From assembly GCA_964187785.1 (NCBI GenBank), contig OZ076409.1, positions 36,706,001 through 36,770,000 of the forward strand: DNA of 64,000 nt. Direction: 5' to 3'. Made by a program: the position numbers and the translations under genes. The DNA is from Amphiscolops sp. MND2022 (taxonomy: Eukaryota). How positions within the stretch are numbered: the first letter of the stretch is position 1; each line of letters starts with the position of its first letter. Below are positions 13,201-44,572 of the stretch, in pieces. The notes below the pieces were generated by a model. The model made no database searches and was not told the origin of the DNA. It saw only the letters and a list, made by a program, of their open reading frames with translations.

Positions 13201-16049
13201 AAATACGACGAAGAATACGTCATTAACATATTAACCGAGCATGCGGAACTGAACGCAAAATATGGTTCACTATTCGACAGCCAATCAGACTACAGCAAAC
13301 AAAATACCGAGACGAAACGGAATACATCCGAGAGCGAAAATGAGCAAAAGAACGACCAATCACACGCAAATAGAACATTCCAGAACAAAGACCACGTGAA
13401 TAAAATTAACGAAAGCGAGAAAACCACATCCGGGCAGTCCGAAATTAGCACCGCAAAGACAAGTTCAAACGTGAAAGAAGAAGATATTGAGAAAATGAAC
13501 CGAGAAAACCTGTACCACTGGGGAGCAACCCGAGAAATTATGGAGATAATAAGAAGAAGAAACAAAAGCCCGGAAACACGGAGACTAGTAGAAAGGAGAG
13601 AAACGCTAGCAAAGCCCGGAACAATGAGAAGACGATACGACCCGCAATCACAGAGAATGATCTTTACACCATCAAGACCGAATAAAAGAAGCCGAGAAGA
13701 GATTGCGGAAATAGATGCGGAGCTCACACAAAGAGCTAACCGAATAGGCGGTGGATACCGGCCAATACTAGAAGAGGAAGAAAATGAACCGGAAGCACCC
13801 GAAGAGGGAGAACTGCAAACTGAACAAAATACGGTGGACACCGAAGAAGATAGCGTGATAATGCGGGGGGACAATTTGCCGATCGTTGACCTCAGCAAAT
13901 ACCATACAGAAGGCAAGGAAGCCCATTACATTCAAATAAACCACATTGTGGGCCGGCTCACCGAGAACAAAAAAATGACGGAAGAAAACATCAAAAAAGC
14001 AGAATTTAATTTCATGCTCGACCTCAAAACACTTATATCCAAAACGGCGATCGATCCGGAAATGACACGAGTCCGGACCAGCATGAGAAGAGAGGAAAAA
14101 GACTCCGCGCCCGAAGGATACAGAGCGGTCTTCGATAAACTCTCGGTTCGATGGGGCCTAGTCTTCGTCGACGATCAAATTGCCGTTCCCATCGACTTGA
14201 GAAGACGGCTTATTGAAATTCTACACTTCGGTCACTCCGGAATAACAAAAATGTTAGCAGACGCGAAGATATTTTGGTGGCCGGAAATGCGGAAAGATAT
14301 CGAACAAAGAGTAAAAGATTGCACAGCCTGCCTAGCTACAGGTAAGAACCTTAAATACCAAATTCCAAAAAACAAGTACGGGAAACTAGAAAAACTGTCC
14401 CAACCGGGACAAGAAATACAAATTGATTTTACCGGAAAATTACATAATAAGAACCTAAACGGCGAACCACAAATATTAATTGCAATAGACCGGTTTAGTA
14501 AATGGCCGACGGCGAAAATTTGTAAAACATCGGAAACAAAAGAAGTTACAAGTTTCCTATCAAATCAGTTTAACTTATACGGCATACCAGAAAAAATTAA
14601 ATCCGATAAAGGGGGAGCGTTCACCTCAACCGAATATAAAGAATTTTGCAAAGCCCGAAATATAGAAGAACAATATTGCCCCCCGAGAATGCATACCGGA
14701 AACGGAACAGTAGAAAGAGCAATACAAACAATGAAAAATCTAGTGCTAGCTAATATGGAAGACGGAAATAACCTAACCGAAAGTGTGAATAGAGCATTAA
14801 AAGTGATGCGATTCACAATACACACCAGACTAAAGAAAACACCATTTGAATTACACCACGGTCGAAAGCCGAGAACGGAACTAACTAACATAATAAAAGA
14901 CGGAAAATCATTCTTATCCAATTGGTCAGAACTGTCCGTTTCAGCACCAAATCGGCCAAAAATACCGATATATGTCGATAGAGACGCAGACGGGGAAATC
15001 ACCAACCACATGGTGATGGCCCGGACAAAGACCGAAAAACGGCAACTGGCCTCGGAGTCAAAATCACCGAAGAAGAGGAGCTCGGTTAGATATCCCTTTA
15101 AATTTCTAGAAAAGAGACATAACCGGAAATCCTTAGAAGGTAGATTCCAATCAAAAATACAAACCGCAGTAAGCGGAACCGAGAACACCGTAAAAACTGA
15201 CACGGGAAAAATAATACACCGAAAATTTATTTCGGATCCATTATTTCAGAGCAAGAAAAGACACCGAAGAGAATCGGCACCGACAGTCTCAACTGAGATA
15301 ACGCCCAAGAACCGACATTGCCTACGCGGACTCGGCGGCAAATACGAGAAATGGGATGAAATACTCAAAGACATCCTAAACGGGAAACTGAGAATAGTGC
15401 AAAACAAAAAGCACACCGAAATAGAGACGGAAGACGTAGACGAAGACGACGAAGAAATACCGGAAGATGCCGGAAAGACGTATGACACATCGGAGAAAGA
15501 TGGACGGTATGCTCCGATACAAACAGACCCCGAAAATGATGTCATACAAATACACACTGACGGAGAAATGCCGCCACAGGGTGAGAACTCTCAAAATAAA
15601 TATAGACGGTCAAACCGAAATATAAATAAACCGAATAGATACGGTGGTATAACATATAAAGGAAATTTTTGGGTATGAAAAAGTTGTTTATATTACAGGC
15701 CACAGCTGGACTCGAACAAAGGGCACACCCAAACCAATACCGGGAACTGCACAAAAACCGCAAGACTTCCTGCCGGAGAACATGACGTTACCCGGCACAT
15801 CTTCAAGCCTCTGAAAAAACCCCGGAGAGAGAAGGGGAAATGTTATACGGTTCATCCGTCAATCAAAAGCAACAACCTTTACCGAACTCCGGTAACAGAC
15901 ATACCAGTCTGTTGTTTACAAACATTAGATGTGAAACTGTTACATCCATTTATGTTATAGAAATACTGTTGTATAGTCTACTACTTTGATACAGAAGAGA
16001 TATTATTTTAGAAAACCTCATTTTATCTAAAGCTAGTTAGAATATAACA
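10233..16049 (+). mobile_element. Ty3/Gypsy LTR retrotransposon (Mag-like), full length but coding-defective
   Basis: 209-bp LTRs (TGTTAT...ATAACA) at 10233-10441 and 15841-16049, with 2 mismatches seen. 5-bp TSD ACCTG. PBS TGGCGCAGTAAGCAAGAT (tRNA-Ser-like) at 10442. PPT at 15824-15840. Confidence 0.95.
10496..15678 (+). pseudogene. gag-pol polyprotein of the Mag-like element (disrupted)
   Basis: Two zinc-knuckle-like motifs, protease IIDTGS, RT WLDD, RNase H TDAS...DH, and integrase HHCC plus DDE. There is a frameshift near 12505-12535 and an in-frame TAG at 12982-12984. Confidence 0.9.
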
Positions 16050-19000: not shown

Positions 19001-19981
19001 TTGCAATTACGAATTGCACGATGCTAAAGTTATGTGAGTTGACTTCTGTGGGTGACACTATTCAATTTGAATTTGAACCTGGGCGAAAAATAAAAAAAAT
19101 GCTAAAAGTAATATTATTGGTCTTTAGGGTGTGATGATAAGAGTTCTGCGAGTTTTTCATTGCATTTTTTAAGTATATCAGTAGAGTCTCATGGAAAGTT
19201 AGTTCTTCGAGGTTTTGCAAGAATATAGGAAAACGGGTCAAAAATACCTGGTCGAAATTACAAGGCGTAAAGTTTGTCGAAAAGCAACTTGCCGAAAATA
19301 CAACAGAGGAAAACTCGTCGTTAGTTACAAGAAATCTCCTCAATCAAATTCAGTGCTAGTTTTGTGACCGTATTATATCATCAAGAATTTCACTGTGAAC
19401 AATAGAAGTTTTGCAAGCAATTGCAAAACTAGAGAACCAGATTTTGCAATACACCAGATTGTGCAATTTGTAAGCCCCACATCGGAAAATTCAAATTTTA
19501 AATAACACTTTTCATTATTTAAAAAAACGCTTTTCTCGTTTCGAAAGTCTCCAACGAGCCAGTATTATTTGTCAAAATGTTTGATTTTTGATCATTTTTG
19601 ACATCAGTTTCATACAATTTATGAAAAAATTCTCAGTGTTTTTGTGAGTATGAATGCTCAGAGTTTAGCGACGAAACTCATAGCTCAGCTACTCGGCATA
19701 CTTTGTTTTCACCCAATGATCTAATTTTCCAAAACTTTTCCGAAGGCCTTAAAACCAAAAAAATTTCAAAAAACAGTTTTGAGATGTATTCGCTATGTTC
19801 GGGCCTTACGTTCTTGCAGTTGTTACCGAAATAAATTACGGTGGAAAATATCCAGGTGCTCAGTGAGTGTCTTGGGTTATCTGTAAAATCCAGGGTACCA
19901 AGTTCACGTCGCTAGCTTTACGCCTTTTTGTAACAACTAGCCAAATTTCTCACTTTCTTTGAACTGATGAAAAGTTCTAAC

Positions 19982-20248
19982 TTGTTCCCATGGTGTTCAC
20001 ATCCACACAGTGTGAGAAACTGATCATCTCGAAGCAGGGCTGCCCTGCCATCTGCACACACACTACATAGGCTGTGCTGGGTGACAAATCTTGTATCGTG
20101 TAGTTGTTGGCCTTGATCACCTTGATAGATTTGGAACTGTCACTCCCTACTCCCCGATTGGGTGTCTCCCCCGCGAACTCTCTGTACCAGATGTAGTACT
20201 CGGCGATTTGCAACTCAGTCGGCATCCAGTCTATCGTAAGACTCTCAT
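19982..20248 (-). CDS. LRR-Ig-FN3 receptor gene, FN3 exon
   Basis: Encodes SLTIDW...YYIWYRE...YTIQDLSPSTAYVVCV, an FN3 consensus. AG/GT boundaries are phase 1/1. Confidence 0.85.
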
Positions 20249-20362
20249 CTGAATAAATTGGAGCATACAGAGTAAGACTCTCATCTGAATGAGTTAGTGT
20301 GTATTTTAGATGTTTTGAGTTAGGAAGTTTTTGTTTTCATCACCGTCGTTGCCAGAAAAAAG

Positions 20363-21869: not shown

Positions 21870-23373
21870 TGTCGCGCTATGACTAACGCTCTAACGAATC
21901 ACCAAAAGGCGCTTTCTATTATAAAAAATAACACGTGCAAAGAGAAACATAAAACTTGAACTAACGTTGTGTGGAGAGTGGAAAGTTGAAGTAAATATGG
22001 CGGCGGCCATAACGCGGCGGCCTCGAAGTGGAGTAATAAGTAATGGAATACTACGGGAAAGGAATTGCACTAGTGAAAATTTCTATTTCTTACCGCGGAT
22101 ATTTGAATTTTAAAGCTGAGCTACCATTGGTAGCATGCAACACATGCCGGCCAGGCACTTCAACAGCTGTGCTGAACTGTTTTTATACCGCGCGCACAGG
22201 CTGGAGATTCATTCATTCCCGCCGGACGGCTGAGCTCAACTTACAGCTCTCTCTCTCTCTCTCTCTTCAACTTATCAATTCCTCTACTTCTCTTACACTT
22301 ACTCTCCCCCTTCTCCCCCTCGACTCTTATTCTCCACTTTCTCTTTGCTTACATTGCACTTGTCTTATCTCAGACTTATAAAGTCAAACTTTCCTCCTTT
22401 TCTCCCTTTCCTCAAGCAAAAACTTATCTTTTCCTTTTCTCTATTCCCCAACAGAATTTTCTATCTTAGAAAATTCTCTTCAATTCAACTTGGTCTCCAG
22501 TTGGGTGAGTCGAAAATATCTTAGATTTTTTCTTTTAGAGGAGATTTTTTACTCTCCCTCCTTCTAACTGAACTCTATCTTAGAATAATTCCGCTGATTC
22601 AATTCTGCGGATTCTATCTTATAATAATTCCGCTGATTTAATTCTGCGGTTGTTAAAATTCTATCTTAGAATAATTCTGCTGATTTAATTCTGCGGTTTT
22701 CCCCTGTTAACTTATTTGTCTTTACCATTCCCATATTCAAAAAAAAAAAAGATGCTATTCCTAAAGTCTTAATGCTATTCCTAAAACAAAGGAGTAGAGA
22801 CTATAAAATTAAATAGTGTTGTCTAAGTTATTACAACACCAAAACTGGATTTTTCGTAAAAAAACTTTCTTCGAACTAAAGGAAATTACTATGAATTTCC
22901 TTCGATGCTAAATTTCTTCATCAATTTATGCTCTAAATTGAAATAGCTAAGATATTACTTCGGTTGCTGGCAAATAAATTTGGTGAGTTTGACTGAATAC
23001 TTGTAAACAGTTGAATAAAAACTGATATGTCTGAAGTTCAACTCTTTTATGTAATTCAACAAGTTTGCTAACATATGTTTTTTTTTCTATAGTTCAGAGA
23101 GCTCATTTACATTCACTGCCTTGCACTTACTCACGCAAGTTCCTTTGTTCGCACGTACACGCAAGGCACTTTCTTTTCGGTATTACAAAAAAGAAATTAA
23201 GTTATTGAGACTTTTCTACTTGTTCTACTTCAATAAAACAACAGTTGTTGGAAAAGCATTTTGCCAAATGTTGTAACAGCTGGGCTGACTAATACGGATA
23301 ACAAATTTGGAATTCCCCTCTAAAAGAGGAAACTGTAAAATAGCAGAACTGAAATTTATCCATGCGTGCGACA
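21870..23373 (+). repeat. 5' LTR (1504 bp)
   Basis: Near-identical to 38173-39677. Differences I saw are (CT)10 vs (CT)9, A12 vs A15, and one G/A at 22570. Contains three internal repeats of about 40 bp (22575-22700) and AATAAA at about 23232. Confidence 0.97.
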
Positions 23374-31367: not shown

Positions 31368-31754
31368 ATGCCTTGTCATAAAGTTTACCTAAATTTATCA
31401 TGGCAAGTTCCACGAGAACTCCAATCCTTAAACGTTCTACACGTTACAATCACAAAAATCTACTGGACCTACACAAACAAACTAATTAGAATTTGCTTCT
31501 ACTCCAACGACCCAGACCCGAGCCCCCACAAACAACCTACGCCCAGAAAATCAAATCTTCATGTTCACCCAGAATCCAAAACGTTTGCTCAACTATATCA
31601 GCACCTAGCCTACCATGCAGTCAACCATCACGACCCTATCCTAGAAGAACTCTTATCCTACATGCCTACCCTAATTCCTGACCTACAACCTTCCTCACAC
31701 AATACTCAAAAGGACCTATTCTGCTGCTCGACTATCTCCTCACCTAGCTCCTAG
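31368..31754 (+). CDS. Accessory ORF A (128 aa), unknown function
   Basis: ATG lies 8 nt after the pol stop. Shares a residue pattern with ORFs B-D. Confidence 0.6.
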   Translation: MPCHKVYLNLSWQVPRELQSLNVLHVTITKIYWTYTNKLIRICFYSNDPDPSPHKQPTPRKSNLHVHPESKTFAQLYQHLAYHAVNHHDPILEELLSYMPTLIPDLQPSSHNTQKDLFCCSTISSPSS

Positions 31755-31916
31755 CCGGCACATTTAACCTATTAGCGATGTATTACCTTTAATATATTCT
31801 ACTTCCGTTTATCGATATTATTTGTGCAATCCCGAACATGACTTACGAAAAGCCACAAGCACAGAAGCGTATAAAAATAGTAGAGAATTTTCCTGGAGAT
31901 GAGAGGCGACTTGCGC

Positions 31917-32561
31917 CTACTCAATCTCCAGAAAACCGCCTTTCTCCGCTAGCCGCCTCAACTGGGAAGCCCGCTCCTCTCTGGTCCATAACTGGTACAG
32001 CCTCACCCACTGCCCCCTCTCGAAGCTGGTCAACTGGCAGAACCCATCTATATAGGCCCTCAGTTGACACAGCACTAATTCCCCTAGAGGGGACAGGAGG
32101 GTTCCCTCCCAACGGGCTCCCAGGTTGGCCCTCAAGAAACTCACAAAGGCATTTGGGATGGGCGCCCCAGATAAGGCAAACCCGGGAGACCCCCGCATGG
32201 AACGGGACAAAGAGGCCCAATTCTCTAACCGGTCCACGTCCCTCCGGTTAAAGAGGCTGAGAAAACTCTGCTCTCCGGGGTTCTCTAAAACCCCTTGAGC
32301 CACTACTGTGGAGGCCTGCAGGACTGGCCTGGGGGCCACAGCAGCAACAGGCGCAGAAGAGGAGGACGGCCCAGCCGCCAACAAAGAAGGCCCAGCCAAC
32401 GACAAAGAAGGCCCAGCGGCCGACGAAGGGCCCACAGACGACGAGGGAGCAGACGACGAGGGAGCAGACGACGAGGGAGCAGACGACGAAGCAGCAGACG
32501 CAACTGTTTCCTCATCGGTCGATGATTCCTCGTAGTAGTCAGACTCGTTGTTGTTACTCAT
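31917..32561 (-). CDS. Antisense accessory ORF (214 aa), acidic and Ser/Ala/Pro-rich N-terminus
   Basis: ATG-initiated. A TATA-like TTATAAAA lies about 65 nt upstream and ATTAAA about 125 nt downstream on the minus strand. It is a GC-rich island inside an A-rich element. Confidence 0.55.
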   Translation of the reverse strand: MSNNNESDYYEESSTDEETVASAASSSAPSSSAPSSSAPSSSVGPSSAAGPSLSLAGPSLLAAGPSSSSAPVAAVAPRPVLQASTVVAQGVLENPGEQSFLSLFNRRDVDRLENWASLSRSMRGSPGFALSGAPIPNAFVSFLRANLGARWEGTLLSPLGELVLCQLRAYIDGFCQLTSFERGQWVRLYQLWTREERASQLRRLAEKGGFLEIE

Positions 32562-32849
32562 TCTGAAGATATCTTAGCTTTTTTTGTCCTAAAGTAATGC
32601 ATGCTTAAACAAATATTTATCTCTTATTTTATAACAATATCTTATGGTTATTTGCCTAAACCGCCTACGATAATCCTACAATAGATAGAATATATCTTTT
32701 GAAACTTCTCTGTACTCAACCACGATCTTCTACGAGATCGTGTTTATACTTTTCAAACACCTCTGTCCTCCAACGCAATGAAATAACTGATGATTACATT
32801 CTCAGATTTGCCATGTTTGAACAACAGTGAACACTGAAGTATCTCACAG

Positions 32850-33071
32850 ATGATCATAATCTTCAAAATCGACAACCGTCTTTCACAAATCACAGATATC
32901 CAGAAGGAACCCTCAACGCAGAACATTATCGTACAAGCATACGCAATAGCAGAAGAAGAAAGTGAAACCTACACTTGTGTGCCAGCATCACCTATCTACC
33001 CTCTACTGGAGAGCTTGCTATATAACAACACCCCTACTGAAGTCGTCACAAGAGCCAAGTCAGTCATTTAA
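32850..33071 (+). CDS. Accessory ORF B (73 aa)
   Basis: Its stop overlaps the next start (TAATG). Pattern is similar to ORFs A, C and D. Confidence 0.5.
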   Translation: MIIIFKIDNRLSQITDIQKEPSTQNIIVQAYAIAEEESETYTCVPASPIYPLLESLLYNNTPTEVVTRAKSVI

Positions 33072-33466
33072 TGTCCTCTCCCGCAGTCGCCGTGTTCCGC
33101 GGAAATAATTACTACTTCCACACACAGTTTCAACCTCCTGTTCCTTGGACTCCCATACAACTCAAGGGCCAATACGAAATACAGTCAATCTTCTACGAGA
33201 TCACAACCTCTGCGATTCAAGTGCGTATACTCACACCAGAAGACAAAGAAGCTCTAGTCCTCTTCCCTATTCACTTCGGATCCAAGGAATACGCCTACTT
33301 ATTCCTTTCGTTCAAGCAATACATCCTCCAACACCCCGCAGTTCTCAAAGACAAGGCTTTCGACGACTTGGTTTATTTTATGGACATCACTCTCACCTCC
33401 AACCCCTTCGAAGAAGAAGTTAGAATCAAATACCTTCACAGCCTAGTCGACACTTATGATGTTTAA
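33071..33466 (+). CDS. Accessory ORF C (131 aa)
   Basis: Start is coupled to ORF B by TAATG; overlaps ORF D by 11 nt. Confidence 0.62.
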   Translation: MSSPAVAVFRGNNYYFHTQFQPPVPWTPIQLKGQYEIQSIFYEITTSAIQVRILTPEDKEALVLFPIHFGSKEYAYLFLSFKQYILQHPAVLKDKAFDDLVYFMDITLTSNPFEEEVRIKYLHSLVDTYDV

Positions 33467-33800
33467 GATTCAACTCAAGTTTCTCTGGCGCCACCCTGAA
33501 ACAAATACACTTCTCGAAATTCTCTCTATCGCTTGGAAAGAAAACGCACCTTCACTACAAATCGAACTCCATAGCCTCCGACCACAAAACCCAGGACATT
33601 GGCTCATCCCAGTTGACACCAACTCCCAAGAGGCTACTGATCTCTCACTCGCACTAAAGGAATATAGGCAAATTGCCTATCTCGACCACATCCACCCTCT
33701 AACACTGTTCCTCCTCAACAAGCTCATTGACTTCCTCGAATTGAGAAGACGAAACAAAACCTCTCCCAGTCTACAATCAATCCGTGACAACTACAATTGA
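33456..33800 (+). CDS. Accessory ORF D (114 aa)
   Basis: ATG overlaps the end of ORF C; paralog-like pattern. Confidence 0.62.
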   Translation: MMFKIQLKFLWRHPETNTLLEILSIAWKENAPSLQIELHSLRPQNPGHWLIPVDTNSQEATDLSLALKEYRQIAYLDHIHPLTLFLLNKLIDFLELRRRNKTSPSLQSIRDNYN

Positions 33801-33845
33801 ACTTTCAGCAATGGTTGAAGTTAGTCTCTTTTAACTTCCTATTTT

Positions 33846-34300
33846 GGCACTTTTTAACAGTAGTGAGGTTACTACTATAAAATTTTAACCTCCGCTTAGT
33901 GCTAGTGCCCACTAAGCTGCCGGTTTGATATTACGGCTTGCCTTTTTACGGCCTTATAACGGATCCTCAATAATAAAATATACTAAAGCTTCAATAATTA
34001 ACCTACTCTTCGGCACTTTTTTAACAGTAGTGAGGTTACTACTATAAAATTTTAACCTCCGCTTAGTGCTAGTGCCCACTAAGCTGTCGGTTTGATATTA
34101 CGACTTGCCTTTTTACGGCCTTACTACGAATCCTCCTCTCTGGAACACACACCTATTTCCCTGAAATAATAAAATACTTATCGTTCCCCTCGGCACGTTT
34201 TAACAGTAGTGAGGTTACTACTATAAAATTTTAACCTCCGCTTAGTGTTGTGCCAGCTAAGCTGCCGGTTTGATATTACGGCTTGCCTCTTTACGGTCTC
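33846..34300 (+). repeat. Three tandem copies of a structured element of about 110 nt upstream of env
   Basis: Copies start at 33846, 34012 and 34192. Stems are conserved, with a compensatory base change in copy 2. Confidence 0.9.
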
Positions 34301-34377
34301 TACTAAACACTTAAACTGATTCTTTAACAGGGAGCGATTACACGGTTGATTCAAAAACAGACTGAAGAATTTCAACA

Positions 34378-36525
34378 ATGAAATTATTTTTCTTACTCTT
34401 CTTATGCGCCAATTTCGCGCCCGTTGTGAACTCACAACGTTCAACGCCAAACCTCGCTAGCGTTGCTAAAAAATTGCGAGTAACTCATTTCGACTGCGGC
34501 GAAATGACACAAAATAAGCTCTACGCCTTGAATCAAGTAGAGCAATGCAATGTGGCCCCGGAAAACTTAGAAGTAAGTCGTGCTAGCGTGACGTTATACA
34601 CTAAACACTTTCGTCGCACTATCAACGCTACTATGTGCCGTGTGAAACACCAGAGTGAAGAATGGCATTGTGGTCATAATGACCACTCCAGTATGTCAAT
34701 CCTACACAACGGAATCACCAGCGATATTTCCTTGTCACCCGAAACCTGTAAGGCCATGGGCGAAGGCAAAGAAGTCATGATCCATGGACAACCCCTCAAA
34801 TTTAAGAAAGGAGTCAAACAAGTACAGACGAGAAACGCCAAATACGGAAAAAGTTGGGATGGAGTACGTGACCCTGATACCCGTAATGAGTGCAAGACAG
34901 GCGGATGGATTAAACGCGAAACCTTCGAATCTCATATCCAAGACGTCGAATTATCAGTCAAAACCAGAGACGGGAAAATCCTCACACCCTTCCAGATGGT
35001 TCTCCCCTGCCCCCTGGAACAACTCGGCTGCGAAACCACGTCATTGGACCCGTACGCCTATACATGGGCAGAGCCAGATAACTGCGTGCTCGCAGTCCAC
35101 AGAAAAGAAATAGTGAATATGATCAAACATGGCTCTAACTACTATATAGTTAGCGGCAACGACTCCACTACCAAGTTCCTATTCGAAATATACAACAGGC
35201 CACAGAAATACTGCAACAAACCCGATGATGTCTACCCTACCAATTACGAATCCCTCTACGTTTCGACCCAATTTGGTGGCTTCGACATGACTTCTGGCAG
35301 ACGACTCGGCATCTCCATGGGAGAAACCTCCAAACTTCAATATTACTCACCCAACGATGGTTCTGGTAATGGCAGACTCCACCTCTTCAGAGGCCCCAGC
35401 GACTCCAACCCCAACACACCACATTATCTCAACATGGATTACGAACTCCACCAAGGAACCAAGTTAGATTATCTCTTCTTTGAGAGCACCCGCTTACTCG
35501 AAGCTTCAGAGATCCAGCTATTGAAAGCTCAATGTGAGCAAGAACGAACACAAATCCTTACCATCCTGATGTTATCCATGGAAAACCCACGACTCGCCGG
35601 ATACATGCTCACGGGAAATCGCTCGATGTTCCTGAACACAGATGGTAGCCTCGCATGGCTCTACCACTGCCCGGAATCCCACTCACCTCTTCACACGATG
35701 AACCAATGCTACGACCGCATACCAATCTTCTACAAGGGAGTGGTCGCCTTTGTAGACCCCATAACCCGACAAACATATCCTAACGCGAACGTACAAAACT
35801 GCACAGATCGTATTAAGAACCTCTTCCAACTGGACATGGAAGACAAGGACTCCTGGTTCACCCTTACACCTTCACCCGAACATCGGGACCGGCCTGCTAT
35901 CTTCGGACCCAAAGACATCCAGCCAATGATTACCAGATCTTTCCCAGGATCACAGGACGCGGGAATGTACACTCCCAAGCAACTCTCCGAGTTTTGGGAC
36001 AACATCCTCATCAGCGCCGCATCACGTAATGCCCTCCAGAAGTTCTCAAGAGAGCTCATCATACCCTCCATGGCCCACAGCGGACCAGAATCCTTCGCGT
36101 ATTACGCACCTCGTACAGATTTCTATGTCGACGGAATGATTTCACCCGACTACTTTAAAAATCAGTTCCTCGAAACATTCGGAAGTATATCTTATGTACT
36201 AGAACTCTGCGGAGCGTACTTTGGCGCTTTCCTTTTTATCAAGTTCGTCATAGATATCACGGTACTAGTCTTCCGCTACTTCGAACTTCGTCACCTTACA
36301 GGTAACACACTGAGCTTCACTAAAACCTTGCTCAGTGCTTCGTACAACCTTTTCTTTACCTCTGTTTTAACTTCCGTATTTACCCCGCGGGCCCCTTTCG
36401 AGGATAGCATTGAAGACAAAAGGGTAAAAACAGAAGACGAAGAAAAAGGAGTAGAACTCCAAATCCTAAAACAAAAAGAGGAATCACTATATCCCTCGGT
36501 ACAGAGCTTTGTTGCTCCAATATGA
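34378..36525 (+). CDS. env: Envelope glycoprotein (715 aa), chuvirus-G/herpes-gB-like class III fusogen candidate
   Basis: Signal peptide and a Cys-rich ectodomain (HFDC, C-x8-HCG, CEQER...P..A..L, CYDRIPI...FVDPITR). N-glycosylation sequons are present, with a C-terminal TM at about 36196-36273. Confidence 0.85.
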   Translation: MKLFFLLFLCANFAPVVNSQRSTPNLASVAKKLRVTHFDCGEMTQNKLYALNQVEQCNVAPENLEVSRASVTLYTKHFRRTINATMCRVKHQSEEWHCGHNDHSSMSILHNGITSDISLSPETCKAMGEGKEVMIHGQPLKFKKGVKQVQTRNAKYGKSWDGVRDPDTRNECKTGGWIKRETFESHIQDVELSVKTRDGKILTPFQMVLPCPLEQLGCETTSLDPYAYTWAEPDNCVLAVHRKEIVNMIKHGSNYYIVSGNDSTTKFLFEIYNRPQKYCNKPDDVYPTNYESLYVSTQFGGFDMTSGRRLGISMGETSKLQYYSPNDGSGNGRLHLFRGPSDSNPNTPHYLNMDYELHQGTKLDYLFFESTRLLEASEIQLLKAQCEQERTQILTILMLSMENPRLAGYMLTGNRSMFLNTDGSLAWLYHCPESHSPLHTMNQCYDRIPIFYKGVVAFVDPITRQTYPNANVQNCTDRIKNLFQLDMEDKDSWFTLTPSPEHRDRPAIFGPKDIQPMITRSFPGSQDAGMYTPKQLSEFWDNILISAASRNALQKFSRELIIPSMAHSGPESFAYYAPRTDFYVDGMISPDYFKNQFLETFGSISYVLELCGAYFGAFLFIKFVIDITVLVFRYFELRHLTGNTLSFTKTLLSASYNLFFTSVLTSVFTPRAPFEDSIEDKRVKTEDEEKGVELQILKQKEESLYPSVQSFVAPI

Positions 36526-36556
36526 ATTATTATCTCATTTCGTAGTTTACGTTTAG

Positions 36557-37159
36557 AATTTAGAACCCTTATTCGACCTCCCAAACCTGGACGACGACAT
36601 CCCTAACTCTATCTTAGAAGACGACTTGCAGATAGAACCCTTATCACCTTCTGACCTGCTGTCACCTGCTTCTCCCACAACTATTACCTTTCTCCTAGAT
36701 CCCCCAGACTCAACAGTTCCTTCTCCGATTCCAAGCGCCCTAACAACAACACCCTCTCCAACGACATCACTACAACTCCCCTTTCCGCTGTCATTTACAG
36801 AAGAGGTAGCGCCTATCCCATCAACTCAACATCCACCTCGATCGCCCCAACATCCACCCCGCTTCGGCGGAAAAGACATAAGACGGGCACTACCCAGGAA
36901 ACACCAACAACAATGGAATGACAAAATAACAGATGACACGCCACTGAAGAAACAACACAAGCGGGAGTACTTCACTAAACGAGCAAGACACGTTAAGAAG
37001 CCCAGATTCAACACAGAGTTGAAATACACTCTCCTCCCACAATTCTCAACTTGGAAAATCGTTTTCTGGGATAACAAGAGACAAGAGTACACCATAGAGA
37101 ACCCAGCCCTAAAGGGACAAAGACTAACGGTCCCCCTAAGAGCCATCTCAGCACAATGA
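36557..37159 (+). CDS. Pro/Ser/Thr-rich ORF with basic C-terminal half, no ATG (possibly spliced)
   Basis: The frame is open from 36557, right after tttacgtttag (acceptor-like). Its stop overlaps the TRAF ORF start (ATGA). Confidence 0.45.
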   Translation, partial: NLEPLFDLPNLDDDIPNSILEDDLQIEPLSPSDLLSPASPTTITFLLDPPDSTVPSPIPSALTTTPSPTTSLQLPFPLSFTEEVAPIPSTQHPPRSPQHPPRFGGKDIRRALPRKHQQQWNDKITDDTPLKKQHKREYFTKRARHVKKPRFNTELKYTLLPQFSTWKIVFWDNKRQEYTIENPALKGQRLTVPLRAISAQ

Positions 37160-38058
37160 ATCGGAGGCTAAACCCAGACGCTATCCCCTTCATCCCAAAA
37201 AGCACTCCTTCCTTCCCCAAAGCTAACGACTGGCCACCTCTATCCAGGACAGAGAATAAAGATGACCTCGAGACACTCGAGGGAATCAAAAGATTGAACA
37301 AATGGATCGCTGAACTGGAAGTCTCAACTAGCCCACAAAGTGAAAAGGTAACCCCGATCCTAAGGAAATCGTTTCCCATAACCGACATAAAACAGCCTAG
37401 AACAAAGTTTGCTAGTGAAATGAAACAACTCCAAAACTTGGCAGAAGAAACGCGGACTAAATGTAATCACTTGGAACTCACAATATCCAATCTACAAGCG
37501 ACAATCAAGTTTCAAGGCGCCCTACTCAACAAAACCAACGTATTAGACGCAAGAAGTGGTGAACCCATCCTTTGGCACATACCCGCTTTTTCCACACTAT
37601 ACAGAAAAGCAAAGACCTCCCCGAATGATGCGTTGAACAACATCAAAAATAGCTTCACTAGCCCTATCTACACTACCCACCTAACCGGCTGCAAAATATC
37701 CCTCAGACTATTCCCTTATGGCGCCAACATCTTCCGCGGAACCCATTCCTCAATTTCTTGTGATCTACACCCCAGCGACTTCACTCTCCCACGAACGTGG
37801 CCTTTCGAGCAACAATTGATCGTCTCAATCATAGACCAAAAAGACAAGAACAACAAATGGTCCATCTCCTTTCCCTATCCCTCCAAAACAGAAGAGTATG
37901 AAGACCCGCACAAGAACGACTACACACTCCCAGGACTGATGAGAGAAGACTTCATCGCGCACACAAAACTCCTGGTAAACTTTAGAGAAGCCTTCCTAAA
38001 CAATGACTCCGTCATAATCCAAATTCAATTTGACAGACCCCTTTTTTCTAAACCCTAG
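37156..38058 (+). CDS. PAM2 - coiled coil - TRAF/MATH domain protein (300 aa)
   Basis: LNPDAIPFIP (PAM2), a heptad segment, then ILWHI...SPIYT...GCKISLRLFPYG...GTH.S...WPF.Q.....IIDQ...FL.NDSVIIQI, matching the TRAF-C consensus. No RING or zinc fingers. Confidence 0.88.
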   Translation: MNRRLNPDAIPFIPKSTPSFPKANDWPPLSRTENKDDLETLEGIKRLNKWIAELEVSTSPQSEKVTPILRKSFPITDIKQPRTKFASEMKQLQNLAEETRTKCNHLELTISNLQATIKFQGALLNKTNVLDARSGEPILWHIPAFSTLYRKAKTSPNDALNNIKNSFTSPIYTTHLTGCKISLRLFPYGANIFRGTHSSISCDLHPSDFTLPRTWPFEQQLIVSIIDQKDKNNKWSISFPYPSKTEEYEDPHKNDYTLPGLMREDFIAHTKLLVNFREAFLNNDSVIIQIQFDRPLFSKP

Positions 38059-38172: not shown

Positions 38173-39677
38173 TGTCGCGCTATGACTAACGCTCTAACGA
38201 ATCACCAAAAGGCGCTTTCTATTATAAAAAATAACACGTGCAAAGAGAAACATAAAACTTGAACTAACGTTGTGTGGAGAGTGGAAAGTTGAAGTAAATA
38301 TGGCGGCGGCCATAACGCGGCGGCCTCGAAGTGGAGTAATAAGTAATGGAATACTACGGGAAAGGAATTGCACTAGTGAAAATTTCTATTTCTTACCGCG
38401 GATATTTGAATTTTAAAGCTGAGCTACCATTGGTAGCATGCAACACATGCCGGCCAGGCACTTCAACAGCTGTGCTGAACTGTTTTTATACCGCGCGCAC
38501 AGGCTGGAGATTCATTCATTCCCGCCGGACGGCTGAGCTCAACTTACAGCTCTCTCTCTCTCTCTCTTCAACTTATCAATTCCTCTACTTCTCTTACACT
38601 TACTCTCCCCCTTCTCCCCCTCGACTCTTATTCTCCACTTTCTCTTTGCTTACATTGCACTTGTCTTATCTCAGACTTATAAAGTCAAACTTTCCTCCTT
38701 TTCTCCCTTTCCTCAAGCAAAAACTTATCTTTTCCTTTTCTCTATTCCCCAACAGAATTTTCTATCTTAGAAAATTCTCTTCAATTCAACTTGGTCTCCA
38801 GTTGGGTGAGTCGAAAATATCTTAGATTTTTTCTTTTAGAGGAGATTTTTTACTCTCCCTCCTTCTAACTAAACTCTATCTTAGAATAATTCCGCTGATT
38901 CAATTCTGCGGATTCTATCTTATAATAATTCCGCTGATTTAATTCTGCGGTTGTTAAAATTCTATCTTAGAATAATTCTGCTGATTTAATTCTGCGGTTT
39001 TCCCCTGTTAACTTATTTGTCTTTACCATTCCCATATTCAAAAAAAAAAAAAAAGATGCTATTCCTAAAGTCTTAATGCTATTCCTAAAACAAAGGAGTA
39101 GAGACTATAAAATTAAATAGTGTTGTCTAAGTTATTACAACACCAAAACTGGATTTTTCGTAAAAAAACTTTCTTCGAACTAAAGGAAATTACTATGAAT
39201 TTCCTTCGATGCTAAATTTCTTCATCAATTTATGCTCTAAATTGAAATAGCTAAGATATTACTTCGGTTGCTGGCAAATAAATTTGGTGAGTTTGACTGA
39301 ATACTTGTAAACAGTTGAATAAAAACTGATATGTCTGAAGTTCAACTCTTTTATGTAATTCAACAAGTTTGCTAACATATGTTTTTTTTTCTATAGTTCA
39401 GAGAGCTCATTTACATTCACTGCCTTGCACTTACTCACGCAAGTTCCTTTGTTCGCACGTACACGCAAGGCACTTTCTTTTCGGTATTACAAAAAAGAAA
39501 TTAAGTTATTGAGACTTTTCTACTTGTTCTACTTCAATAAAACAACAGTTGTTGGAAAAGCATTTTGCCAAATGTTGTAACAGCTGGGCTGACTAATACG
39601 GATAACAAATTTGGAATTCCCCTCTAAAAGAGGAAACTGTAAAATAGCAGAACTGAAATTTATCCATGCGTGCGACA
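38173..39677 (+). repeat. 3' LTR (1505 bp)
   Basis: Direct repeat of 21870-23373, followed by the TSD CAAT. Confidence 0.97.
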
Positions 39678-39831
39678 CAATGTATTTTAGAAAACTTCTG
39701 ATAGAAATCGTGCAAGATCTAGCGAGTACAAATCGTTTCATTTGCATTGAATGGTTTTTAAAAAGATCCAAAACGAGCATTATCAAAACATGTTATCCAA
39801 TGTGTTATCGAAAACAATATTGCGTCATTAC

Positions 39832-40087
39832 CACGACTGGATTCTCGTCTCGTATGTCTGGAATCGTGTATGACCCATCTCTGGGGGTGACCCATTCAAC
39901 CTGGATGACCTCATTAGAATCAGACTCGGCTGCACACCTGAGCTCCAGGGTCTGACCTATGAGCACATTAAGACTGGAGTGTCCAGGGTAGAACTCAGTG
40001 ATGACCGGGATCACACAGGTCAGGTCATCTTCACTCATACCTGCCAACTTCTCACCCTTCAGGTCACTTGGGTACAAACATGTGACC
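39832..40087 (-). CDS. LRR-Ig-FN3 receptor gene, end of LRRCT and first half of Ig
   Basis: Encodes VTCLYPSDLKG...LTC...GQTLELRCAA...VEWVTP, with ttccag and gtaatg boundaries. Confidence 0.88.
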
Positions 40088-41398
40088 CTGGAAAGAAATG
40101 AAACTCTGTAGTTTCTGTATCTGCATTTTCCAAACAGGCACCGAGGTGAAAGAAATTAGATGTAAAGTCTCTGTGCATTTTTCGTGTATTTCGCACTATG
40201 CTACAAATGTAGTTAAAAATCACTCAAAAGACTTGTGGGTCTGAGCTACATGTGATCAACCTCTCTGAATCCATTCAAGTATCAGTAGACCAGCACTTTA
40301 GAAAATGCATCTAACTCTGAATCCTTCGAAAACCAAACTCTTACTATAGTAATATGATAACCCATATTAAAGCTACGCCGATTCATCTTCATGCCGTTTG
40401 CCTTTTTTGCACGGATTCCTTATGGGAAACAAAAAATCCTTATGGGAAACAAAAAATTATCTTTCAGACTCGTTTTTTTTTCTAAATTTTCGGCGTTCCG
40501 ATTTCTTACCCATAAGATAGAGCTTTTTCCACAGAAGTCAACTAGATAGACTCATTGAATATGTTTTGGCGGAGATGATTGAACATTTGAAAAAGAGTGC
40601 CTGGGTTAGAAATAGCTTCAAAAGTCTCAAAATAATCCAAAACAAGTTTTGGCCGTTTTACACAATTTTGTTATATATACAATTTGAAACTTGAATATCC
40701 ACGTGTTGGACCTGTGGATTTGAACGACAGAACAATGTAGCTGTTCAAGTATAGCATTCGGACAAATTTCTGACGACGAAATTTCTGGCGACGAAATTTC
40801 CGCCTCCCTTTGAAATGATTCGTGTGAGTGAATTTCGATTTAATTTTTCAGGCCAACCTGTTGTTTTTCACACGGAAAACGCTGAGACAAGAAAAAAGGC
40901 CCTTATGAAACGACTTTCCAGAGAATTAGGTTAGATTGACCAATTTTCAAACTAGTTCAAAGAATGTTGCCAAGACAAAAAGCGAAAGCACAAAAACTTT
41001 TCACCTGCTTCAAGATATTCAAGAAACTAAACACCTAGCTACTAAATGTGCTTTCCTAATGCAGTTGTTAATGCGTATGAAGATGAAAAAGGAATTAGAT
41101 GAACCTTTTTGATCAGATTTTTTAGTGGGTTGTTTGTTCAAATACATTCATTTTTCGAAATTACCTTGAAATCAACATAATCCCATGCTATTCATAAGTT
41201 ATAGAACAAATTATCTTCCAAGCTCTGATTCGAGATTCGAATAGATTCAAGTTTCAAGATTGGAATTACAAAGATTGGAAATCGAATAGATTAAGGACTG
41301 AAAACCCACTGTTTAGATTTTTAGATTATTCACAATTTTAACCTTCCTTTCTGAGAGACAAGTTTATTCGATACGATTAATGAAGTATTTAGTCTAAC

Positions 41399-41667
41399 CC
41401 ATCGGCAGCCATGTGCACACTGGATATATAAATCAATAAAGGTAAAATTGCGCAATCGCAGTTTAGGGGGTTGTCATCTAGCCAGTTCCAGTGAGCACCT
41501 GCGTACGAGAAGTGGAATTGAGAGAGACTGCTGGCCACTGATTGGAGAACATTTTCGGGCACTGTGCTGATCTGATTGGATGATAGATCCAACAGACTCA
41601 GGGATTGTAGACTGCTAAATACTGCAAAGTCCAAAGTCTCGATCTTGTTGCCGCGGAATCTTGCCTC
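41399..41667 (-). CDS. LRR-Ig-FN3 receptor gene, LRR and LRRCT exon
   Basis: Encodes LQSLSLLDLSSNQISTVP...LDDNPLNCDC. Phases fit the neighbouring exons. Confidence 0.88.
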
Positions 41668-42022
41668 CTGGAAAATAGATTTGTCATCAAAAATGCTCGA
41701 GCGCCCAATTTGAAAAGTTGAAATCTAATTGGTTGAAAAAGCCTAAATTGATGATAAAATTATGAGACAGAAAACTTTAGCCTTAGAGAGTTTGATTCGC
41801 AATGAAATTTGTGAAACCTCAGGAATCATTTTAATAAAAAGATGGAGACTCAAGCTGCTCCGTTTTATTATTTGTTTGAAAAGTGAGAAAAGTACATTAT
41901 ATGTGAACAATTTTTTTTCCGTAGAGATATATGTTGTATTTTAATTTTAGTGTAATTAATATTGTTTTTCTTATTTTTTCTTTCATACGTCTGTATATAC
42001 GATTAATATGCGTTTTCATATA

Positions 42023-42254
42023 CAGTTTAACTTCAGTATTACACACCTCGTTGGGAGAAAACGCTCAAGTACGTTACCGTTTAACTTCAGTATTACACAC
42101 CTCGTTGGGAGAAAACGCTCAAGTACGTTATTCTGAAGTGTGTGTTATAAGCGAAAAAGACCAAATGATGAAAACCAAACACGGGGGCACAAAATATGTG
42201 CGTTATTCTGAAGGTTACACTATAGTGCACGTGTGTGATACTGAAGTTAAACTG
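42023..42254. mobile_element. Tc1/mariner-type MITE
   Basis: TIR of about 24 bp, CAGTTTAACTTCAGTAT(T/C)ACACAC, with TA on both sides and an internal tandem duplication of about 54 bp. Confidence 0.85.
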
Positions 42255-42272
42255 TATCAAACTTGTAAGTAC

Positions 42273-42634
42273 CTTCAGCTTCGAATTATGTTTGAAATAC
42301 GATGACTTTAATATCTTCAAATTGTTATCTGAGAAATCGAGGTACTGCAAATCCTTCAGGTAGCCCAAGTTAGGAAACGTTGTTAAAGAGTTTCCAGCTA
42401 GGTTCAGGATTTCAATGGCTCTGTTCATCTTGAAGATCTCGAAGGGGATTCCTAGCATGAAATTGTTGCTAAGATCAAGTTTCTGAATATCAGTGTTCGT
42501 TTCCAGGGATTCTTCGTGGATAACCAGGTTGGCCATTTTCACCACATTTTCCAGGTACAAATACCTTAAACTGGGAAACCCCCCGAAGAAGTTTGGACCA
42601 ATCACATTGATTGGGTTTCCACTCATGTCTAACA
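42273..42634 (-). CDS. LRR-Ig-FN3 receptor gene, LRR exon
   Basis: Repeated LxxLxLxxN motifs (LDMSGN, LDLSNN, LNLAGN, LDFSDN), with AG/GT ends. Confidence 0.9.
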
Positions 42635-42834
42635 CTGAAACAAACTTTCGATTATAAACAAGAGCTCATTATTCCATTCATAATTGCTTTTTTTCTAGCG
42701 TTTGTCGAAGTATTTTAACTTTTTCAAACTATGGAGTCTCAGCTGCGGTTACAATATGGAATATTTGAAAACAAAATAGCCTGAAACTCACAGCTTTTCT
42801 TTTTAGTTATGTTTTCTCGGCCAATCTACTGTTT

Positions 42835-43341
42835 TTACTCGGCGCCATTTAGTAGAAAATGAGTCCGACTCTTACAGTGGGCGATTTTTTTGGACGCGCG
42901 TGGTCCACTTTTTTGTTCATTTGTTCAACAACAAAAACTTGAACGACGGATGTTCAAAATATACTCGAAACGTCAGAAACTCATCCAAAACAAAAAAAAC
43001 GACATCCAGAACCTCAAAAACACTAAGGATCTCTCCTTTGGCTATCTTGGTGTTTTTCATTTGGATTTTTTTCGGCACTATGAGACTTTTTGCAACAAAA
43101 TGGATGCTAAAAAACCCAAAGGGTCCTCCCTTTTACATTTTTCGTCACTGTGAAACTGTTCAAAATTCTCAATTTTCGGTTTTCTTCCAAAAACTTTTAT
43201 TGTCTCCAAAGGGTCCCCCTTCATTTTTTCCAAATTTTGCCACAAACTGGTTTCACAAAGCCCAAACTTTTATAGTTTTACAAACGTTGCGCTTTTTGAG
43301 CCTTAGATATAGTCCCGACTTTGGCCGTTCCCTGCTTGTTT
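42835..43341 (+). mobile_element. Helentron/HINE-like repeat copy
   Basis: Same family as 4298-4858 and 61901-62400, in opposite orientation to the latter. Confidence 0.6.
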
Positions 43342-43587
43342 TGTCGTATCTACAGAGCAAACGTGAGTCTTTAGAAATTCAACTATTAGAGATGATAGGA
43401 AAGTATCCAAATACGTTTTAAATTATTCAATCGGAAACGTTTCAGTGAGGTCCATGATGTCACGAACAAATAAAATCTCAATTTTAATACCTTGCTTCAG
43501 TTTGTTTTCAAAGTTAAATGTCAGAAGCTCGAATTTTAAAAAAAATTCACAAAGTATACCACTTGAATTAGCAGAAGTCGTTCAAAC

Positions 43588-43821
43588 CTTCAACTTTGGA
43601 ATGGAACTTCATGGAGTTAGTTCCGGGTGCCTTCTTCAATAAGTTGTGATTGAGGTACAAATGGGACAGGTTGGATATTGTGGTGAAACTGTCATCTTCC
43701 ACTATTGATATTTTGTTAGACTGCAGAAACAGGTTCTTGATTTCTGACACCCCACTCAAGTAGGTCTCCTTGAACGTCTCCAGCTGATTCGAACTCAAAT
43801 CAAGGGTATCCAAAGAGAGTC
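43588..43821 (-). CDS. LRR-Ig-FN3 receptor gene, LRR exon
   Basis: Encodes LDLSSNQL, LFLQSNKI and LYLNHNLL; phase 1/1. Confidence 0.88.
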
Positions 43822-44247
43822 CTTTTGACAGAAATTCGAAAACATTACGTCATCTTCGTGGCGAATAATTTTTTATTTAAATTTGATTATTTTCACACGA
43901 GGTGGATCTCATGAGGACTGAATGAACTTCCAAAAAACAAACCGTATTTTCGTTGGACTTAGAAAAGAATTTTTAAAAATGTTTGAAAAACTAATTGAAC
44001 AAGGTTTACTTGTAAATTGAAGAAGGTTCTTCTGATGATCCGTTTTCGACCATTTTCAAGAATTCGAGAACGAATTATACCTATAGTAAGCATTAATGCG
44101 CACACAGTAAGACTTGAAACTTCAGCGCCCGTAATCAGTACCACAAAATCAGCTTGACGTAGTCTTGAATGGAACATTAACAGATCATTACTAGCACGCA
44201 GCCTGAATGTCATCTACATTAGTCACTTGTCATTTTCTAATTCCTGC

Positions 44248-44572
44248 CTTTGAAACAACCAGTCCCGATTTTGGCGATTCTGTTGTTACTCAAGTCAATC
44301 TTGGTCAACTTCTTGTTGTTTCTGAACACGTTGTCTCCCAAAGTGAGGCTTTGATGTTTCTGGCATTTGAAAACCTGAAGTTCTTTCAGGTCTGCGAAGT
44401 TATCTTCTGACATGAATGTTATCAAAGTTTCTTCCATGCTCAAGAATTTTGTCCATGGGGGAATGTTTTTTGGGAAAAACGTGATTTCTTTGCCTTGACA
44501 TTCCACAACTCCTTTTGTTTTTGAACAGTGACATTTTTCAGGGCAAGCACGCGTCTGGATGATAAGAGTAAC
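44248..44572 (-). CDS. LRR-Ig-FN3 receptor gene (LRRN/LRFN/LRIT-type architecture), LRRNT exon; the signal-peptide exon upstream was not located
   Basis: Encodes CLPEKCHCS...VECQGKEITFFPKNIP (LRRNT) followed by LRRs. ttttag acceptor; the donor appears to be GC. Confidence 0.82.

Follow-up and report, generated by a model that had tools for sequence, protein, structure and literature searches.

A tandem array of predicted pseudoknotted RNA modules in the env leader of a Ty3/gypsy retrotransposon of Amphiscolops

A tandem array of three RNA modules, each of about 107 nt, stands between ORFc and env of a retrotransposon in Amphiscolops sp. MND2022. It lies in a stretch of 64,000 nucleotides (contig OZ076409.1, positions 36,706,001 to 36,770,000, forward strand), which is the window analysed here. 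Comparison with sister loci supports the view that the module is a selected, covarying RNA structure, predicted to consist of a pseudoknot and hairpins. The module is an uncatalogued fold that most likely does a known kind of job, and the array is tentatively regarded as a signal for the export or packaging of intron-retaining RNA. A search with Rfam covariance models, which the initial annotation of this DNA had proposed, gave only chance-level matches in the window region and the sister loci, none of them at gathering score, and literature searches, which left most subscription journals outside their coverage, retrieved no description of this module or element.

The array and its host element

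The host element is a young Ty3/gypsy retrotransposon of 17.8 kb with a target-site duplication of 4 bp, residing in a genome of 1.07 Gb, and its coding set comprises gag, pol, several small ORFs, env and a TRAF/MATH ORF. The relevant features, in window coordinates, are:

21870..23373, + strand: 5' LTR, identical to the 3' LTR at 1501 of 1502 aligned positions with 5 gap positions; the PBS is next to it
33456..33800, + strand: ORFc, the last of three small ORFs joined by stop-start overlaps, ending 58 nt before the first pseudoknot
33811..33825, + strand: predicted 3-codon mini-exon with donor (ATG at 33811, GT at 33820, phase 0)
33826..34377, + strand: AUG-free leader, from the predicted donor to the env start
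33846..33952, + strand: module 1, with the P1 5' strand at 33846-51, the H-type pseudoknot at 33859-92, P4 at 33894-917, P5 at 33919-37 and P6 at 33940-52
34012..34119, + strand: module 2, with a compensatory double change in P5
34192..34297, + strand: module 3, with a shorter P4 loop and G-U wobbles in P1, P4 and P6
34378..36525, + strand: env, a chuvirus-like fusion glycoprotein (Pfam Monjiviricetes_fusion, E 5e-31)
36533..36556, + strand: predicted acceptor, which would close a 2737-nt intron made of array and env
36557..37159, + strand: ORF-X, 200 codons with zero Met, its stop overlapping the TRAF/MATH start
37156-38058, + strand: TRAF/MATH ORF, directly after ORF-X
38173..39677, + strand: 3' LTR, with 1 mismatch and 5 gap positions when aligned to the 5' LTR

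Several further observations concern the element and its surroundings. The TRAF/MATH-domain ORF (37156-38058) appears to have been captured and is a possible modulator of host signalling. Several of the small ORFs at 31368-33800 and their homologues in loci L127-L132, which are joined by stop-start overlaps, look like paralogues of one domain of about 130 aa, for which a confident model gives five strands followed by helices. The structure model of ORFb (pLDDT 83) had no match in viral Foldseek, PDB Foldseek or Atlas, and structural searches matched no RNA-binding fold among the small ORFs of the element. On the minus strand, an antisense ORF of 215 codons (31917-32561), acidic and Ser-rich at its start, is also present in subfamily A2 and family B. 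Judged from ORF sequence, the element is inserted in a host gene of LRR-Ig-FN3 type, within one of its introns (19977-20336 and 39805-44572, minus strand). The window also contains what we take to be a second Ty3/gypsy element, broken and without env (10433-15678), and, presumably, a Tc1-like transposase fragment (6525-6995). The combination of an LTR retrotransposon with a chuvirus-like fusion protein is shared with the chuvirus-glycoprotein LTR elements of mosquitoes (PMC7642597; here and below, likenesses to published systems follow the accessible parts of the cited papers), from which the present element differs in being a Ty3/gypsy element with many accessory ORFs. The literature searches retrieved no account of a structured env leader in such elements, and a term search in the accessible text of PMC13524379 found no passage on splicing, IRES or RNA structure.

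Predicted fold of the module

The three modules start at 33846, 34012 and 34192, at a spacing of about 167 and 179 nt, and each begins with P1, a 5' strand of 5-6 nt predicted to form a long-range pair with the loop of hairpin P4. The H-type pseudoknot predicted to follow has an S1 of 5 bp (33859-63/33872-76), an L1 of 1 nt, an S2 of 7 bp (33865-71/33886-92) and an A-rich L3 of 9 nt. One base separates S2 from hairpin P4, and this is followed by hairpin P5, with a nearly invariant loop of 11 nt, and by the small P6, so that the predicted fold as a whole comprises two nested pseudoknots. The module may bear partial resemblances to the twister, pistol and hairpin ribozymes, the T-loop, U2 snRNA and the MPMV CTE loop.

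This fold retains most of the initial annotation, which had read a triplicated double-pseudoknot element just before env: the three copies and all the helices it named were recovered in place, as were the change of its third hairpin from GCCG/CGGC to GTCG/CGAC in copy 2, the altered hairpin loop of copy 3, and the conserved cores separated by diverged spacers, which do not align between the three copies. Its stem AGTAGT/ACTACT with a loop GAGGTT that pairs with AACCTC is present as well, but a 6-bp stem is incompatible with a fully paired 6-nt loop, and S1 has 5 bp. The hairpin P6 is an addition to that earlier fold, from which the splice frame around the array, the variation in copy number from 1 to 5 and the different arrays of the sister families had been missing.

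Covariation and chance controls

The window alone holds one double change and some wobbles, too little to bear the covariation that had been claimed from it, and it is the sister copies that supply this evidence. In an alignment of 12 module types, both sides change in 8 of 23 pairs and 98.2% of the cells are paired, while none of 500 shuffles scored as high and slid controls reached at most 2 pairs, although kinship among sequences can beat such shuffles without any structure. In a 19-row alignment that includes P1, itself partly misaligned there, both sides change in 10 of 31 pairs. Covariation is present in S2, P1, P4 and P5. None of the 7 pairs of P4 is invariant and 94% of its cells are paired, and the switch of the long-range P1 pair is coordinated, on either side, in 28 of 30 modules, although it counts as a single evolutionary event. 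Compensated S2 changes are confined to family B: a genome-wide search with exact patterns found 15 S2 variants, 7 of them compensated (all in family B) and 8 broken, each of these in single copies. S1 is invariant, without a two-sided change in either alignment, and its predicted pairing is thus unproven by covariation.

The module core hardly changes from family A to family B, with 46 of 86 module columns invariant, whereas third codon positions in the ORFs on either side agree at only 34-44%. U-G pairs in P1, S2, P4 and P6 allow pairing on the sense strand only, and the fold is therefore assigned to this strand. A minus-strand reading was rejected, as one base would have to cross the 7-bp stem, the wobbles would become mismatches and the descriptor described below has no match there. 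The covariation, the sense-only wobbles and the near constancy of the core between A and B uphold the earlier proposal of a selected RNA structure.

A descriptor made of the pseudoknot and the adjacent 7-bp hairpin matched the three copies only in the 17.8-kb element and had no match on its minus strand; among 3000 dinucleotide-shuffled versions of copy 1 it matched none. These figures are optimistic because the descriptor was fitted to this fold and the control is therefore soft; the descriptor missed the family-B modules of locus L127. Nested folding alone does not stand out: z lies between -0.3 and -2.0 for the plus strand and between -1.2 and -2.1 for the minus strand. Genome-wide, the P5 motif has 255 exact copies and a control pattern 0. 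The array was found in 85 of the 86 loci examined, with 1-5 modules in each (one row merges two arrays), and it stands before env wherever examined. YAG stands at the start of 207 of 210 modules, with the AG buried in S1. Locus L061 of family B (modules 1-3) has two peculiarities: its long-range P1 pair would extend over the entire array of three modules, and its modules 1 and 2 have a self-complementary 4-mer in the P4 loop, where a kissing or dimer contact may form. In viral contigs, searches for exact copies of the core patterns of A/B and C/D found nothing, nor was an env relative found there. A metagenome scan gave 8 loci from 98 candidate stretches; no array was seen by eye in the 4 inspected, and a covariance model of the module found nothing real in 3 inspected metagenome loci or in the C/D loci. 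The env types P0004 and P0011, known from a protein search, are absent as such from this genome, and env types P0003-P0019 have relatives in other genomes.

Splice sites and leader around the array

The array likely lies at the 5' end of an intron, and array and env together would form a 2737-nt intron of an ORF-X/TRAF message, because a donor precedes the array and Met-less ORF-X begins at an acceptor after env. The donor lies 26 nt before module 1, and the mini-exon that it would terminate reads, if left unspliced, as a 7-codon uORF. Of 85 arrays, 65 have an upstream ATG together with a GT donor, 13 have the donor but no ATG, and 7 are without the pattern; in family B the ATG, phase and donor of the mini-exon are kept and the two middle codons differ. 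ORF-X begins right at the AG acceptor in phase 0 in 8 of 8 A/B copies. Families C and D are without the mini-exon, and ORF-X has its own Met in 3 C/D loci among the 10 fetched. All 9 ORF-X acceptors examined end in TTTAG, with a pyrimidine share of 0.56-0.94. A second donor inside env, at 34573, is strong in family A and weaker in B, and could be a rival source of the ORF-X start codon. No spliced retrocopy was found among the 24 env starts on contigs 1-4, 23 of which have a module directly upstream (the 24th is an inverted duplicate), and modules are likewise present in 20 of 20 further loci.

No triplet is as strongly depleted as ATG in the leaders that precede env in families A-D (3 observed and 22.4 expected). 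When repeats are collapsed and the mini-exon ATG is excluded, families A, C and D together have 1 ATG against 14.8 expected (P 6e-6), and five control regions show no ATG depletion; the env leader is therefore considered to be scanned. About 130 nt separate the last pseudoknot from 34366, where the stop-to-stop frame of env first opens, and the AUG follows at 34378. The distance from the last module to the env AUG ranges from about 25 nt in family B to 80 nt in the window. Other roles for this region were tried and rejected. A PKI-type start would need an open frame through module 3, which exists in family B and is closed in A; ribosome shunting does not suit a uORF whose length varies between subfamilies or a leader without AUGs to skip; and a frameshift or readthrough pseudoknot does not agree with a nearest long-ORF stop 58 nt upstream, a U-run that varies between copies and an array that no ORF spans.

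Sister families and an env-dead family

Families C and D, in which the env N-terminus is about 45-55% identical, carry other tandem modules in the same place, in 5-11 copies with a period down to 51 nt and invariant internal loops. The D module, which is uncatalogued, is predicted to form a stem whose asymmetric internal loop does not vary, with an A-rich tail; its D form has 569 exact matches genome-wide. It occurs in 5 copies before env in family D (L075/L130), and a D-type module occurs in 10-11 copies before the small ORFa in family C (L128:5500-6075, L129:5110-5700). A third module type, in family C (L065:2400-2800), ends in a bulged hairpin with a short loop, and one copy related to it is also found before env in D (L075). 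In 3 of 3 C/D arrays tested, an AATAAA is no more than 33 nt away from the stop upstream, with the array beginning 75-92 nt later, and families A and B have no AATAAA at the corresponding place. The arrays are thus placed between an RNA-processing site upstream, a donor in A/B or AATAAA in C/D, and an internal ORF downstream. The occurrence of at least two further unrelated module types in equivalent places suggests that these are interchangeable RNA parts.

An internally deleted family of 17 loci has neither gag nor pol and only a broken env, and keeps 1-4 modules. Its internal length from PBS to PPT is about 2.9 kb (L026/L027), it has lost the ORF-X acceptor, and its env frame stops by codon 12-59 in 16 of 16 copies measured. 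The modules of these non-autonomous copies are 93.8-100% identical to the autonomous ones, and the env remnant is 73-77% identical. That the array is kept in an env-dead family argues for a putative role on genomic RNA. Shared-variant columns in 11 of these copies amount to 3.7-4.9% in the module cores, which is less than in the middle remnant of env (12.5%) and in what is left of ORFc (21%), but the 5' remnant of env (4.0%), the upstream DNA (4.6%) and the spacer (2.3%) have shares no higher than this. In 3 of the 17 loci the env 5' end is 99-100% identical to that of a helper subfamily, and recombination with helper elements may refresh the module cores. The members of this family (L020, L022-L030, L081-L091) carry one 182-codon ORF, which resembles a family-B gene absent from the element of the window.

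A candidate export or packaging signal

The reading preferred here, although held tentatively, is that the module array serves as an RRE/CTE-like signal by which intron-retaining RNA is exported or packaged. If spliced from 33820 to 36556, the transcript would lose array and env and yield the ORF-X/TRAF message, and the array would then be carried only by the unspliced RNAs, genomic and env. The invariant loops would be bound by a protein of the host or of the element, for which additional module copies would provide additional sites, and which, once bound, would license the export or packaging of the intron-retaining RNA. Ribosomes would reach env by scanning the AUG-free leader, either once past the short uORF or on an RNA spliced into the first module. 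The copy number, short period and invariant loops of the sister-family arrays would suit repeated protein sites. Among the functions listed in the initial annotation, export or packaging is the one that gains most, through the predicted intron position and the retention of the array in env-dead elements.

Elements of the musD transport element (MTE), CTE and RRE type are, like the array, structured cis elements of LTR retroelements with a pseudoknot and long-range pairing (PMC4588558; PMC11379458). The MTE needs its pseudoknot and a kissing loop, and a common sequence is not required among export elements (PMC4588558; PMC11379458). The class is further defined by export of an intron-containing reporter and by binding of NXF1 or a Rev-like protein. 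Like its members, the array has a stable conserved fold with tertiary pairing, for which covariation speaks in S2, P1, P4 and P5 and not in the invariant S1, and it is predicted to be carried only by incompletely spliced RNA, donor, acceptor and phase being conserved. It differs from these elements in consisting of tandem 107-nt modules in an env leader, whereas they are single, about 400 nt long and placed within env or close to the 3' LTR; no sequence common to both is known, and export is a candidate activity of the array. Most known export elements are situated within coding sequence or close to the 3' LTR (PMC4588558), unlike the array. Against the export reading also stand the small ORFs, which match no RNA-binding fold, the shared-variant shares of the module cores, which do not demonstrate constraint after the loss of env, the possible refreshing of the cores by recombination and the second donor inside env. 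Loss of the ORF-X acceptor in the env-dead family removes the intron to be retained, and arrays are without exception part of an AUG-free leader that precedes an internal ORF, a position at least as compatible with a role in translation.

Alternative explanations

The modules could instead be tandem exoribonuclease-resistant RNAs (xrRNAs), each stalling a 5'-3' exonuclease and preserving the downstream cistron as a subgenomic RNA, although this is unlikely. In xrRNAs of any class a ring that encircles the 5' end blocks Xrn1 (PMC12397905), and the exonuclease would here enter at a nearby cut, the debranched intron end in A/B or the poly(A) cleavage in C/D. The module shares with Watson-Crick coremin xrRNAs a plan of short stem, 1-nt L1, A-rich L3, S2, 1-nt linker and free-sequence hairpin, and coremin can likewise occur in repeats and between genes (PMC10321173; PMC10520033). 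P4 corresponds to the second coremin hairpin, which directly follows the pseudoknot and is conserved in structure but not in sequence. The start of the arrays 26-92 nt after a donor or ORF end, the AATAAA of the C/D arrays and the AUG-free leader would also suit such a role. The architecture thus leaves room for the xrRNA proposed earlier, but the coremin consensus fails: against a loop of YGAD or YGNNAD, a spacer of 8-10 nt and an S2 of 3 bp, the module has an 8-nt loop that starts with YGA and ends in UA, a spacer of 17 nt, an S2 of 7 bp and the additional P1, P5 and P6, and its host is a DNA-integrated retroelement. Nor does the supported fold contain the three-way junction with two pseudoknots of flavivirus class 1/2 xrRNAs, for which there was no Rfam match. 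Plain H-type pseudoknots, according to the accessible literature, do not stall Xrn1, and coremin motifs cut scanning about five-fold (PMC10520033), which would be costly in tandem before env. Moreover, the invariant P5 loop would be left unexplained, families A and B are without AATAAA, and the env-dead family keeps the array with no intact ORF behind it. Doubtful as well is a translation element, an IRES-like landing pad or enhancer on which ribosomes would land before scanning to the AUG of internal cistrons beyond the reach of stop-start coupling. The ATG depletion of env leaders in four families and the presence of the pre-env module of family D before a different ORF in C (10-11 copies) would agree with it, but AUG loss shows scanning and not internal entry, and a spliced 5' UTR gives the same pattern. 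What stands of the IRES claim of the initial annotation is the AUG-free leader, while membership of type 6 (dicistrovirus IGR) failed. Type 6 IRESs, especially 6e, also have nested pseudoknots upstream of a structural gene (PMC13273307), but in the module the nesting is mirror-wise and the unit repeated, the outer pseudoknot begins with a single strand of 5-6 nt without internal loop instead of a PKII hairpin with L1.1 loops, and env starts at the downstream AUG 34378, whereas PKI of type 6 lies directly before a first codon that is not AUG. The module is not a type 6 IRES. In addition, the gap to the AUG (about 25-80 nt) and the copy number (1-5) both vary, and the array is kept where env is dead.

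A splicing or 3'-end regulator, in which the fold would mask its own YAG, damp a neighbouring donor or poly(A) site and so set the ratio of genomic, env and ORF-X RNA, is improbable. The YAG at nearly all module starts, with its AG inside S1, and the pyrimidine share of first modules (0.66), which falls within the range of the ORF-X acceptors, are in line with this role, but the inner modules of some subfamilies are purine-rich (0.50), the TTTAG ends of 9 of 9 ORF-X acceptors are unlike module starts, and no spliced retrocopy was found among the env starts and further loci surveyed above. Translation of env from its own excised intron is highly improbable: the tandem modules 26 nt inside the 5' end of this intron would block exonucleases and recruit ribosomes, giving two messages per splicing event, and the sister-family modules would act alike behind internal poly(A) sites. 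Barely credible is a self-cleaving ribozyme of an undescribed class, or a promoter inside the element that would use the TATA-like, A-rich loop. Invariant single-stranded letters amid variable stems would suit a ribozyme, and self-cleavage can start translation in some viruses (PMC13725137), but three cuts would break the genomic RNA and there was no Rfam match at gathering level in the window region or the sister loci. Models of HDV-like, twister, pistol, hammerhead and hairpin ribozymes gave no match near gathering score on either strand, which deprives the earlier ribozyme claim of support; the module is not a known ribozyme. A promoter could use the TATAAAA within L3, but the TATA word is missing from the D module in its family-C form and the G-U wobbles indicate RNA, not DNA, and the TATA promoter was dropped as a reading of this loop.

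Significance

To our knowledge, little is known about the export, packaging and translation of the 16-kb multi-gene RNA of env-bearing Ty3/gypsy elements. With its 80-107 nt, natural variants and copy-number series, the module is directly testable as an export signal, an xrRNA or an IRES. If env were translated from its excised intron, these elements would be operon-like retroviruses punctuated by RNA structure, and if the modules were xrRNAs or IRESs, an RNA-virus mechanism would have moved into an integrated retroelement. If the preferred reading as an export signal is true, the array would represent a pseudoknotted, multimeric transport element beyond the vertebrate retroviruses.
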